A stretch of DNA of 64,000 nt from an uncultured Chloroflexia bacterium (GTDB taxonomy: Bacteria > Chloroflexota > Chloroflexia > QHBQ01 > JADMIH01). Below are positions 33,887 through 40,501 of the stretch, piece after piece. Both the position numbers and the translations under genes were made by a program. The stretch is taken from assembly GCA_963797095.1 (NCBI GenBank), contig CAWCNY010000002.1, positions 384,001 through 448,000 on the forward strand, given 5' to 3'. Positions within the stretch are counted from its first letter, which is position 1, and each line of letters opens with the position of its first letter. Below the pieces are notes generated by a model. The model had not been told where the DNA came from. It searched no databases and was given only the letters and a program-made list of their open reading frames with translations.

Positions 33887-33915
33887 TTGACTACCCCCCG
33901 CATCCGACCTATAAT
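33887..33915 (+). promoter_or_regulatory. sigma70-type promoter of the ECF/anti-sigma/murA unit
   Basis: TTGACT-17nt-TATAAT, about 85 nt upstream of the ECF start. Confidence 0.7.
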
Positions 33916-33998
33916 CGTAAGGCATCTGCTTTCTTCTTTCCCGTCCAACTTCTGCCACCCACCGGCCATCACAGCACGTCCCGCCCAGGAGCCTCCCT

Positions 33999-34541
33999 AT
34001 GGACATAGCCATCATCGAACGCGCACGAGCAGGCGACGAATCGGCATTTGTCGCCATCTATGAGCATTTCAGCCCGCAGATCCATCGCTATGTCTACCGC
34101 CTGCTGGGCAGCCAGGAATTGGCGGACGACGTTACCCAGGAGACTTTCCTGAAAGCCTTCCAGAACATCGCGGGCATAGCGGACGATTCCAACCTTGGTG
34201 CATGGCTCTATCGCATCGCATCCAATGCCTGTTTTGACATACTGCGCCGCCGCAAGTTGATTACCTGGATGCCGATCCTTGAGGATAACGAGAAATCATC
34301 CGAATTTACCGCCGAAGACTTCTCACCCCAGGTGATCGAGTCGCAATTGGTCCGACGCGCCCTTGTTGAGATGCCCCCTGCCCTGGCAGTCTGCCTCGTT
34401 TTGCGCTCGGTGGAGGGCTTTTCATGTGAGGAGATAGCCGAGATCCTCAAGATACCGAAAGGCACGGTCTTCAGCCGCCTGGCACGCGCCCGCGAAATGT
34501 TTATCTCGCTCTATAACCGCCGTCCCACCGCCGACCAATGA
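33999..34541 (+). CDS. ECF RNA polymerase sigma factor
   Basis: Region 2 ADDVTQETFLKAF..WLYRIASN; region 4 EGFSCEEIAEILKIPKGTVFSRLARAR. Confidence 0.93.
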   Translation: MDIAIIERARAGDESAFVAIYEHFSPQIHRYVYRLLGSQELADDVTQETFLKAFQNIAGIADDSNLGAWLYRIASNACFDILRRRKLITWMPILEDNEKSSEFTAEDFSPQVIESQLVRRALVEMPPALAVCLVLRSVEGFSCEEIAEILKIPKGTVFSRLARAREMFISLYNRRPTADQ

Positions 34542-34602
34542 TGCACAGGCAACCAGGCGATAGCGCAGAAAAGTGTCAGGTCTGAGATTTGAGCTCTAAT
34601 AG

Positions 34603-37600: not shown

Positions 37601-39210
37601 CTCCTACCTCTCCCGGCCTGTGGTACCTGATGTCTGAGGCTACTTCGGCTGCGGGTGAGGGGTGGGGATGGGCGGCGGTGCGCGTCGTCCCCGACGCATG
37701 GATGCAACTTCCCCCATCCATTCAATCCGAAGCGGGCGAAGGTTCGTCATTTGCAGTGCGCGTGTTCAACCCCGGCGATGAGCCACTTACAGCCGATGTG
37801 GAGGCCCTCAATAACGCTTCGGTTGTAGATGCCGATGTGTCGAAGAGCGTGCAGGTCCAGGCGAATGGGCTGGCCGACGAGCAGTGGCGACTCTCAGCGA
37901 CCAGATCGGGCGACACTATATTGACCTTCTCGCTCGCGGCCCAGGACCTCGGCTTCCAAACTACAGGCGAGTGGCCTTTATCTGTCAGCAGCAAGCCGCA
38001 CCAGGACAGCGATGTTACCTACACATCGGGTTCGCTGACAGGCGAGCGGAATGTGGGTGTAGCGGTGCCCTGGGGCCTCGATAGCAGCGACCTCACCCTG
38101 GAGATACGCGCCTCGACCTCGTTGCTGTCGTCGCTGGCAGGCATCACCCGCGACCTGTACGGCGGTTGGGTAGCGTCCTCCGATGGCGTATCGATGGCGG
38201 CGGCACGCCTGAGCGCGGGCGCACCGGTTGCGTCGGCGTTTGCCCGCTCAGGAGAGGGTGTGCCTGACGACCTGTTGCTGTCGGGTGTCGAACGTTCCAG
38301 GCTTCTCCAGCAACTCTACGCTGCGCAACACCAGGATGGAAGCTGGGGCGGCACCCTGGATGGCGATGGAGTAGGCAGCGTGTCTCAAACTGCTGCCGTC
38401 CTGCTTGCCTTCTATCGCTCCTCATATTATCCATACGGTGATGGCCAGCTACAGCCCGACCAGGGCGTGATCGAGCGCGCTTTGCAATACCTATCGTCCG
38501 AGCTGGCGCGGCCTTTGCGGGTCGGTGCCTCGTCCAATGCTCTCGATGAGCGTGCTTACGCTCTGTATGCATTCTCGCTCTACCGCTCTGTGCCCAACGA
38601 CTGGATGCGCCCTCTGCTTGCGTATGCCTTGCCGGGGCCATCCGGCGCACCCGCTTCGCTGACGGTGGATGGGCAGGCTTACCTGGCGCTCGCGCTCATG
38701 CAGTCGGATAGGATGGCAGATGCGCTCGCGCTCCTTGATACCGCCCTTCGCCTGCAGTCTGCCGGGAGCGTACCTGTGTCGGCCCCCATGCTCATGGCGC
38801 TGTTGCAGTCGGAAGCCGACGCTTCCAGCGGCGCAAACAGTCAGCCTTTCTCATCTTCCTACTCGGCGATTCACAACTCGCAATCGGGAATCCGCAACTC
38901 CCTTTATGTGACCGCCCTCATGGAGGCGCGTGAGGGCGCGGGCTGGCATACGCCCCTGATGACAGCCGATGCTATGTGGGCATTGTCGCTCTATGCGGCG
39001 ATGGAGGGAGAGCATCCACGCTCGGACTCCCCCGCGCTCTTCCTGGGCGACCGCCCGATCCAGCCCAACCTTTCCGGTGGCATACCGGGCGAGCTATCGG
39101 TGCTGCTGCCGGGCGATGAATTGAAAGCCGGCACCAACTGGCTCAAACTGCGCTCCCCGGCCTCGGGCGAGCCTCTCTATTACAGCCTGACTCTAATTGC
39201 AACGAGGTAA
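34603..39210 (+). CDS. Zinc anti-sigma (zf-HC2) fused to Big_5 Ig-like and alpha-2-macroglobulin-like domains
   Basis: C...LISRYVDDE....HVEVCRDC; one TM; two Big_5-like repeats; MG-like [21 protein letters not shown]-like [12 protein letters not shown]; no CxEQ thioester. Confidence 0.8.
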
Positions 39211-39211
39211 A

Positions 39212-40501
39212 ATGGAACGCTTCTACGTCGAAGGCGGGTACCCCCTGCATGGGGAGGTCATGCCCGCAGGCAACAAAAACTCGGCGCTGCCTATGCTGGC
39301 GGCCTCTCTCCTGACCGATCAACCGGTCACTCTTCGCAATCTCCCCAATATCGGAGATGTACGCACCATCCTCAAGATACTGCGTGGTATGGGCGTTACG
39401 GTGGACGATACTGACCTGGCGGGGTCGCACTCGGTAACGCTGCAGGCAAGCAAAGTCCACGAGCAGCCCGACCAGGCGCTCGGCTCGCTGGTGCGCGGCT
39501 CGCTCCTCTTCGCGGGGCCAATGCTGGCTCGCACCGGGCATGCCTCGGTCGGCCAGCCGGGCGGCGACGCGATCGGTCGCAGGCGCTCGGATACACATCT
39601 GCTTGCATTGCGGGCGCTGGGGGCCGATATTGCGATCCACAACGACCGTTATGAGATGAAAGCGGGTCGCTTGCGTGGCACAGAGATATTCCTTGATGAG
39701 GCCAGCGTAACGGGCACGGAGCAGGCGATCCTGGCAGCGGTGCTTGCCGAGGGCGAAACCCTGGTCTTCAACGCGGCCTCCGAGCCGCACGTGCAAGACC
39801 TCTGCAATATGCTCAACACCCTCGGAGCGTATATCGAGGGGATGGGCACAAATACCCTGATCATAAAAGGTGTGCCTTCCCTGCATGGCGGCGACCACGC
39901 TATTATGTCCGATCACATAGAGGTGGGCAGCTTCATCGCGCTGGCAGCTGTCACGGGTGGTGAGTTACGCATCCGCAACGCTGTGCCCGACCACATGCGG
40001 ATGACCTGCCTTGTTTACAAGCGCCTGGGTGTGGAGGTACACATAGAAGGTGAGGATATTGTAGTGCCGGGCAACCAGACCCTTAAGGTTGACTACGATG
40101 TGCACGGGGCCGTGCCCAAGATCGACGATGGCATCTGGCCTGCCTTCCCAAGCGATCTGATGAGTATCGCGCTGGTCACGGCCACACAGTCCGAGGGAAC
40201 TGTGCTGATATTCGAGAAGATGTTTGAGAGCCGCCTTTTCTTCGTAGACTGGCTGATCAGCATGGGAGCGCGCATAGTGCTATGCGATCCGCACCGTGCG
40301 GTGGTGGTGGGTAAGTCCGCGCTGAGAGGTGACGAGATCACAAGCCCCGACATCCGCGCAGGCATGGCCCTATTGATGGCCGCCCTGTGCGCCTCCGGGC
40401 AGAGCACCATCTACAATATCGGGCAGATCGACCGGGGCTATGAGGCGATTGAGAAAAGGCTGGAAGCCCTGGGCGCAAAGATCAAGCGCGTGGTCGATTG
40501 A
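39212..40501 (+). CDS. murA: UDP-N-acetylglucosamine 1-carboxyvinyltransferase (Asp at the Cys115 position)
   Basis: [56 protein letters not shown] 1 nt after the upstream stop. Confidence 0.95.

Follow-up and report, generated by a model that had tools for sequence, protein, structure and literature searches.

In this study, a 64,000-nucleotide stretch of DNA (the window; positions 384,001 to 448,000 of contig CAWCNY010000002.1 in GenBank assembly GCA_963797095.1) from a soil Chloroflexia bacterium, whose named relatives are all metagenome-assembled, was found to encode a sigma factor of the extracytoplasmic function (ECF) class, a 1535-aa protein joining a zinc-binding anti-sigma (ZAS) domain to an ectodomain homologous to bacterial alpha-2-macroglobulins (A2Ms), and the peptidoglycan precursor enzyme MurA, in that order and on the same strand. 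Considering the identity of the parts, the fold of the ectodomain, and the conservation of the whole arrangement, we favor, with moderate confidence, the reading that the fusion protein works as an envelope sensor of the RsiW kind, controlled by proteolysis and equipped with a new, A2M-derived input domain. The locus had been singled out in an earlier note made from the sequence alone, and its statements on the promoter, the ECF sigma gene, the 1535-aa open reading frame (ORF), the motifs, and a murA start 1 nt downstream were all accurate.

The first gene (33999..34541, + strand) encodes a sigma factor of 180 aa in which only regions sigma-2 and sigma-4 are present, as in the ECF (group IV) class, with Pfam Sigma70_r2 at residues 20-86 (63.9 bits), Sigma70_r4_2 at residues 116-166 (49.5 bits), and a TIGR02937 score of 88.5 bits (cut-off, 42.9). 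Its best sequence match in the PDB was SigW of Bacillus subtilis (5wuq_A; E = 6.8e-22), and its counterparts are 79-89% identical to it within the genus and 55-66% identical in sister families. The second gene (34603..39210, +) starts with TTG, a start backed by the conserved N-terminus M-x-C-x-R-Y in 25/25 orthologues, and encodes a protein predicted to be single-pass with an ectodomain of ~1390 aa. Residues 1-80 (34603..34842, +) form a predicted cytoplasmic ZAS domain, with zf-HC2 at residues 3-37 (36 bits; cut-off, 22.2) and the HxxxCxxC motif as HVEVCRDC at residues 29-36 (nt 34687-34710); the zinc ligands C3, H29, C33, and C36, which make up the class I ZAS motif, were invariant in 25/25 sequences. 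Moreover, the family profile matched RsiW in the PDB (5wuq_C; E = 2e-4) over profile residues 1-76. The only 19-residue stretch with a Kyte-Doolittle value above 1.6 marks a single transmembrane helix at residues ~123-145 (34969..35037, +), and the positive-inside rule would place the preceding RFDPSPRR on the cytoplasmic side, giving a probable N-in topology. The N-terminal HxxxCxxC zinc domain, the one transmembrane helix, and the two Big_5 repeats claimed in the earlier note are thus confirmed by Pfam and Kyte-Doolittle analysis.

Its assumption that the ZAS domain pairs with the adjacent sigma factor also gained support from complex modeling. The model of the sigma factor with anti-sigma residues 1-80 and zinc reached an ipSAE of 0.72, compared with 0.36 for the best control, a result that likeness to solved sigma/anti-sigma complexes may explain; of 80 solved complexes, 58 came up to the mark applied, as did 2 of 110 mismatched pairs. 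At least 96% of the contacts agreed between runs, the partner had a pLDDT of at least 84, and contacts were made on both sigma-2 and sigma-4. In B. subtilis, RsiW is cleaved by PrsW-family and M50 proteases, and both families are also encoded in the window's genome, as one RseP/RasP-like M50 protease (446 aa, 179.6 bits) and three PrsW-family matches, which were scored for presence only. Regulated intramembrane proteolysis is therefore feasible, and the gene content is that of an RsiW-type system, namely, a single-pass anti-sigma factor together with candidate site-1 and site-2 proteases. Since SigW and RsiW are the best PDB sequence matches for the two partners, which share the combination of an ECF sigma factor and a zinc-binding, single-pass anti-sigma factor, the genes are predicted to encode a SigW-RsiW-type ECF sigma/class I ZAS pair. 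The extracytoplasmic part of RsiW is small, whereas the ectodomain here comprises ~1390 residues with an A2M fold, and the operon with murA and the housekeeping-type promoter are further differences from the B. subtilis system. Anti-sigma factors with large sensory ectodomains, such as RsiV and RsgI, are known. The second PDB match of the anti-sigma domain profile was DdvA of Myxococcus xanthus (8rlz; E = 0.01), a transmembrane anti-sigma factor with an ECF partner (PMC11506125), whose outer domain is likewise a signal receiver; unlike the protein described here, none of DdvA, RsiV, and RsgI is known to have an A2M-fold domain.

The ectodomain begins with a membrane-proximal stalk of two Big_5 immunoglobulin (Ig)-like domains at residues 183-380 (35149..35742, +; Pfam Big_5, 57.5 bits in two stretches), which are similar to Ig domains found in mycobacterial L,D-transpeptidases and in CopC. 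AlphaFold2 (AF2), Foldseek, and hhalign then place about seven macroglobulin (MG)-type beta-sandwich domains at residues 387-1171 (35761..38115, +), a count read from the strand pattern of one AF2 model; the array ends in the first half of a CUB-like domain. This run includes a Pfam MG2 domain at residues 610-694 (nt 36430-36684, +; 40.8 bits; cut-off, 32.8) with its 10-residue motif at residues 612-621, preceded by a sub-threshold bMG3 match at residues 537-598. An all-helical domain resembling the thioester domain (TED) follows at residues 1174-1468 (38122..39006, +), with twelve helices in the model and the sequence QHQDGSWG at residues 1242-1249 (nt 38326-38349), and the protein ends in a four-strand segment (39034..39207, +) forming the second half of the CUB-like domain, without MG10.

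The AF2 model of residues 380-1535, built from an alignment of 39 homologues, had a mean pLDDT of 83.8 and a pTM of 0.60 and was laid out as a long beta-sandwich run, a twelve-helix all-alpha domain, and four strands. When it was compared with the PDB by Foldseek, all 47 rows (ranks 1-50, repeat chains omitted) were A2M, thioester-containing protein (TEP), CD109, or complement structures, led by native ECAM of Escherichia coli (5a42; E = 5.1e-39) and Salmonella A2M (4u48; E = 1.2e-38), with A2ML1, CD109, human A2M, TEP1, and complement C3/C5 next. Independently of structure, hhalign aligned the family profile over ~1250 columns (probability, 100; E = 1.4e-40) with P0046, a 1965-aa lipoprotein from an Anaerolineales metagenome-assembled genome (MAG) that served as the reference for A2M comparison and whose Pfam set is Big_5, bMG3, MG2, bMG5, bMG6, A2M_BRD, A2M, TED_complement, and bMG10; the TED-like domain aligned with its TED_complement part. 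The ESM Atlas neighbors were clusters of Big_5, A2M, and A2M_BRD. When the PDB was searched by sequence alone, whether the query was the protein or the family profile, only the Big_5 and MG2 parts were recognized, so a fold search was needed for the rest. The agreement of Foldseek and hhalign establishes the ectodomain as a true homologue of bacterial A2M with the A2M fold, and the structural check proposed in the earlier note thus came out in favor of its A2M assignment. In an Anaerolineales MAG (L028:271-7596), a canonical lipoprotein-type A2M of 1965 aa is the divergent neighbor of an ECF sigma gene and of a small protein that matches zf-HC2 weakly, which may represent an unfused counterpart of the sigma/A2M association in a single case.

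The ectodomain is not to be filed as a protease-trapping A2M, given that the thioester, the bait region, and MG10 are all missing. Type I A2Ms, of which E. coli ECAM/YfhM and Salmonella A2M (5a42 and 4u48) are the best structural matches, carry a CxEQ thioester, a bait region, MG10, and a lipoprotein anchor, whereas here the first three are absent and the anchor is the anti-sigma's own transmembrane helix. The thioester-equivalent position, which was set by alignment to a relative itself without a thioester, is occupied by an 11-residue stretch at residues 1185-1195 (nt 38155-38187, inside 38119-38211). With no cysteine after residue 275 and no CxEQ anywhere in the protein, a thioester is impossible, as the earlier note had concluded. 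Cysteine is also missing from the TED-equivalent region in 39/40 family members, and CxEQ was found neither in the 40 rows of the alignment (A1) nor, by regular-expression scan, in any of 14 Chloroflexota A2M-like proteins, including the unfused P0045 and P0046 and a 2108-aa paralogue from the window's own genome. The Chloroflexota A2Ms examined are therefore of type II, MagD/YfaS-like, the type defined by a missing thioester (PMC5764988), and the ectodomain, with its A2M fold and no thioester, belongs to the same type. Loss of the thioester as a special adaptation of the fusion was rejected, because every Chloroflexota A2M-like protein scanned is without CxEQ; for the same reason, and because type II A2Ms had already been described, the earlier note's use of the missing thioester as a sign of repurposing does not stand. 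MagD of Pseudomonas aeruginosa and YfaS of E. coli share the thioester-less A2M fold with our protein, whose nearest unfused relatives carry YfaS-family names at the source; unlike them, it is fused to an anti-sigma domain and lacks the bait-region insert and MG10. MagD has been described as a periplasmic protein of a Gram-negative bacterium, encoded in the six-gene mag operon, that traps a protease although it has no thioester (PMC5764988), and no mag-related genes were recognized here in a Pfam scan of five neighboring proteins, a scan that included no Mag protein models.

The bait-region insert is replaced by a short hypervariable loop at residues 969-982 (37507..37548, +). Against residues 1071-1229 of P0046, the window protein has 96 gap columns, and the bait position, measured from the preceding strand to a conserved Trp, spans ~12 residues in the window protein and ~72 in P0046; fused proteins of the sister families have 30-45 Pro/Ala-rich residues there. 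Likewise, 369 residues separate the MG2 motif from the post-bait Trp, compared with 513 and 584. The loop is ordered in the model (10-residue block pLDDT means of 81-82), and neither Pfam A2M_BRD nor A2M matched the window protein at E <= 0.1. At the C-terminal end, the hhalign alignment stops at residue 1774 of P0046, ahead of its bMG10 domain (1789-1949), no bMG10 match was found in the window protein at E <= 0.1, and the TED motif lies 294 aa from the protein end, compared with 406 and 467 aa. With the bait insert reduced to ~12 residues and MG10 gone, classical bait-trap sensing is doubtful in the window's genus, and the bait-cleaved model of the earlier note fits this genus poorly. The paralogue in the same genome (L051:7281-13607, contig C3) is a complete type II A2M that is not fused, with three Big_5 domains, MG2, A2M_BRD, A2M, TED_complement, and bMG10 and no CxEQ, and its presence marks the fused copy as a derived, specialized paralogue. 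The 2108-aa paralogue is flanked by a PAS/GAF histidine kinase gene and an LPG_synthase_TM gene and by a hybrid histidine kinase gene.

To describe the distribution of the fusion, a word-indexed search was used, which returned 41 full-length homologues with 38-68% identity. Precomputed zf-HC2, Big_5, and MG2 matches were present together in 32 of them; the zf-HC2 match was lacking in nine, most of which have a shorter N-terminus. Homologues with a source name all came from MAGs of Chloroflexia or Chloroflexota. Among 201 genomes sampled from the class, a close form occurred in 25/25 genomes of the window's GTDB genus, the window's own genome not counted (22/22 without the unpublished G013, G031, and G133), with full-length ORFs in all of these wherever the contigs allow. 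Two more families of the order gave weaker matches, as did one additional family of the class; among the eight weaker matches that were fetched, five were fused (L043, L044, L045, L046, and L050, in families f2 and f3) and three unfused (L047, L048, and L049). The five fused proteins (1639-1814 aa as stop-to-stop frames) have HxxxCxxC at residues 29-36. The fused sister forms are fuller than the window protein, since they match Pfam A2M (PF00207), several have bMG10, and some have A2M_BRD above the cut-off; one fused sister protein, P0081, scored 44.2 bits for A2M_BRD and 54.4 bits for bMG10. A search of 1.84 billion representatives with the anti-sigma domain profile placed 16 long proteins (1464-1792 aa) at ranks 1-65 of the best 150 matches, eleven of them among the homologues already found and four more examined by Pfam scan; long proteins among these best 150 belonged to the fused family only, the remainder being short fragments or ordinary anti-sigma factors of 200-660 aa. 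Within the genus, identity to the window was 72-86% for MurA, 41-75% for anti-sigma residues 1-379, and 35-66% for the ectodomain, the fastest-evolving protein part of the locus. The fusion is therefore long established and has been maintained within one Chloroflexia order, with its most reduced version in the window's genus.

The operon is preceded by a housekeeping-type promoter, TTGACT-17 nt-TATAAT (33887..33915, +), which agrees with the consensus at 11/12 positions and lies 84 nt upstream of the sigma ATG. This promoter is conserved in 28/28 distinct loci (the window, 23/23 close loci, and 5/5 order-level loci, one duplicating L027), and TTGAC-N17/18-TATAAT, 78-112 nt before the sigma ATG, is the sole conserved block upstream of the sigma gene. 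The third gene, murA (39212..40501, +), encodes UDP-N-acetylglucosamine 1-carboxyvinyltransferase (TIGR01072, 467.8 bits; cut-off, 392.7) and is single-copy in the genome, where the only other match scored 94.9 bits, below the cut-off. Its ATG at 39212 follows the anti-sigma stop TAA (39208-39210) by 1 nt, with a GAGG ribosome-binding site inside the upstream gene, and the three genes are likely co-transcribed from the housekeeping-type promoter, judging from this layout. Among 27 close loci, the sigma gene was upstream in 23/23 and murA downstream in 23/23 of those reaching that far, and the order of sigma, fusion, and murA was also kept in 5/5 fused loci of the two sister families, that is, in three GTDB families of one order in all. 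From the anti-sigma stop to the start of murA there are 1-4 nt in the window, L001, and L007 and 58-340 nt elsewhere in the genus; coordinate arithmetic gives tight spacing for L043 and L045 too. Most of the sequence in the longer spacers is made up of long hairpins built on short tandem repeats, and an AGGAG ribosome-binding site comes immediately after them. The hairpin arms are heptamer-like units and their complements with no T-tract (L003, L006, L008, L009, L011, L013, L014, L016, L019, L020, L025, and others), and comparable repeats precede the sigma gene in L006, L017, and L020, which gives the impression of a lineage-specific class of intergenic repeats.

With a housekeeping promoter and no ECF-type promoter, control of murA by the sigma factor is unsupported, and the promoter type argues that the coupling of murA would be one of co-expression rather than of sigma-dependent induction. 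The link to peptidoglycan precursor synthesis drawn in the earlier note thus stands as far as murA adjacency across three GTDB families is concerned, and falls short in that no link from the sigma factor to murA expression was found. Type I A2M genes often adjoin the peptidoglycan synthase gene pbpC, a neighborhood that the murA linkage parallels. The linkage may also be no more than inherited gene order without function, the pair having been inserted upstream of murA in the ancestor of the order and sharing a strong promoter, a possibility that we take seriously but consider the less probable one. In keeping with it, unrelated flanking genes (GH10-like, SBP_bac_3, and phosphoribosyltransferase genes) are also syntenic in the genus, murA is a single housekeeping copy, the promoter is of housekeeping type, and no conserved signal precedes murA. 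However, the sigma, fusion, and murA genes are kept together in three GTDB families in which the same search did not detect the other flanks, and the tight spacing in the window, L001, and L007 as well as in L043 and L045 implies translational coupling in separate lineages; this persistence and spacing speak for a functional linkage.

If the fusion protein is an RsiW-like, proteolysis-controlled sensor, the sigma factor and its inhibitor would be made constitutively alongside the cell's only MurA from one transcript, and the ZAS domain would keep the sigma factor at the membrane. An altered state of the ectodomain, brought about by proteolytic damage or by a ligand- or wall-dependent conformational change, would expose the anti-sigma factor to site-1 cleavage, the M50 site-2 protease would next cut within the membrane, and the released sigma factor would turn on an envelope regulon. 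The ectodomain in the window's genus would then act as a sensor scaffold, not as a working protease trap. A more ambitious version, which we offer tentatively and regard as rather unlikely in its entirety, is that an A2M-fold protein serves as a transmembrane receptor whose ectodomain state gates intramembrane proteolysis of its own anti-sigma domain. In the fuller sister forms the gate would respond to cleavage at the bait position, and in the window's genus to another conformational or ligand switch; an A2M-type "spring" would thereby be wired directly to transcription and inherited together with the enzyme that opens cell wall synthesis.

Several observations weigh against the sensor reading, its A2M-derived input domain, or the single transcript on which it draws. 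Foldseek TM-scores were low (<=0.33), which we attribute to a different domain arrangement. The bait-position loop is the hypervariable part of its domain within the genus, with a 23-residue insert in one member; a bait would vary in the same way, and some protease sensing may persist. No ECF-type autoregulatory promoter was found in an alignment of the 200 nt upstream of the sigma gene from 24 sequences, in which only the TTGAC and TATAAT boxes and CATCC within the spacer were conserved; autoregulation is usual among ECF sigma factors, so the sigma factor here would be atypical. The sigma and anti-sigma genes are separated by 61 nt with no overlap. At the other end, the spacer hairpins could terminate or process the transcript, and no promoter for murA was found in the end of the anti-sigma gene, where third codon positions of the last 132 nt vary freely.

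In a model along the lines of the earlier note, the system is an envelope-breach alarm, in which a foreign or misplaced protease cuts the A2M-like ectodomain, the cut or the conformational change that it causes frees the sigma factor, and peptidoglycan precursor synthesis is raised via murA. We consider this unlikely, and it suits the fuller sister forms better than the window's genus. The A2M fold on which it depends is confirmed, and type II A2Ms can trap proteases without a thioester (PMC5764988). The sister fused subfamilies keep A2M_BRD, A2M, and bMG10 as well as Pro/Ala-rich bait linkers of 30-45 residues, and the linkage to murA is order-wide. Moreover, the hypervariable short loop and the fast-evolving ectodomain keep such an alarm alive in the genus itself, the ectodomain being the least conserved part (35-66%, compared with 79-89% for the sigma factor), as expected of a surface meeting foreign proteins. 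Against it, the genus has lost the bait insert and MG10, the bait-position loop is modeled as ordered (block pLDDT means, 81-82), and with no ECF-type promoter before the operon or murA, release of the sigma factor would not visibly alter murA transcription.

Less probable again is an effector role, in which the ectodomain is a membrane-tethered shield or envelope scaffold, the ZAS domain serves as an anchor and a gauge of abundance or export, and the sigma factor reports a shortage of the protein. Bacterial A2Ms are membrane-anchored envelope proteins, which would suit such a role, as would the constitutive type of the operon promoter and the retention of full-length ORFs throughout the sampled genus genomes; MagD, moreover, localizes to the inner membrane (PMC5764988). 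Yet a complete type II A2M paralogue is already present in the genome, the fused copy is without the parts needed for trapping, and the strict retention of the anti-sigma domain, its zinc ligands, and the sigma factor together argues that signaling is the selected function. Finally, an assembly chimera, which the earlier note had raised as a concern, was rejected because the same architecture recurs in the 41 homologues and in 25/25 sampled genomes of the genus, so that the fusion is genuine and conserved in relatives.

Other features of the window and genome were recorded around the locus. An extended form of the operon promoter motif had four matches in the window's own genome, its own site included, compared with none for the reversed control, and the other three resemble ordinary housekeeping promoters; one of these, at C5:417714-417743 (-), lies ~450 nt upstream of a match (C5:416715-417260, -) to PrsW-family proteases and may be a mere housekeeping promoter. 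A second, divergent promoter-like site, TTGACC-17-TATAAT, is present on the minus strand (33854 to 33826, within window 33818-33854) and overlaps an AT-rich near-palindromic block that is also found upstream of the promoter in L001, L008, and L024 and that may be an operator or belong to a divergent small transcript. Between the SBP_bac_3 gene and the operon promoter lies a Mutator/IS256-family transposase ORF (32347-33516, +; Pfam Transposase_mut, 324.8 bits), which was matched in 0/40 related loci searched and by which no convincing insertion sequence terminal inverted repeats were found. Downstream of murA, a 1056-aa S-layer homology (SLH)-domain protein with a Rax2-like beta-propeller match is encoded at 40559-43729 (-), with a 216-nt tandem duplication at 40629-41044; within the genus, a long match to it was found only in L001 (residues 1-724), and L006 matches its C-terminal part only.

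Literature searches linking anti-sigma factors with macroglobulin or A2M returned no relevant paper. The main text of the ECF re-classification (PMC7826278) contains none of the terms macroglobulin, Chloroflex, MG2, murA, and Big_5, and its supplements listing ECF groups with their anti-sigma domains may hold this one. The combination of an ECF sigma factor, an anti-sigma factor with an A2M ectodomain, and murA therefore appears to be undescribed. To our knowledge, the A2M family is known for protease traps and complement-type opsonins, not for receptors that control transcription; many sensor domains are known on ECF anti-sigma factors, and none was found described with an A2M ectodomain. If the state of the ectodomain does control sigma release, this would be a new input logic for ECF signaling, and the three subfamilies, ranging from a complete to a stripped A2M, would form a natural series showing which A2M parts signaling needs. 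An association of A2M with peptidoglycan synthesis has been proposed for Gram-negative bacteria; the operon with the sole murA, present across the order, repeats it in a monoderm-type lineage and makes it testable by a transcriptional read-out. Should the receptor reading prove true, the locus would parallel, independently, the pairing of A2M with PBP1C in Gram-negative bacteria.

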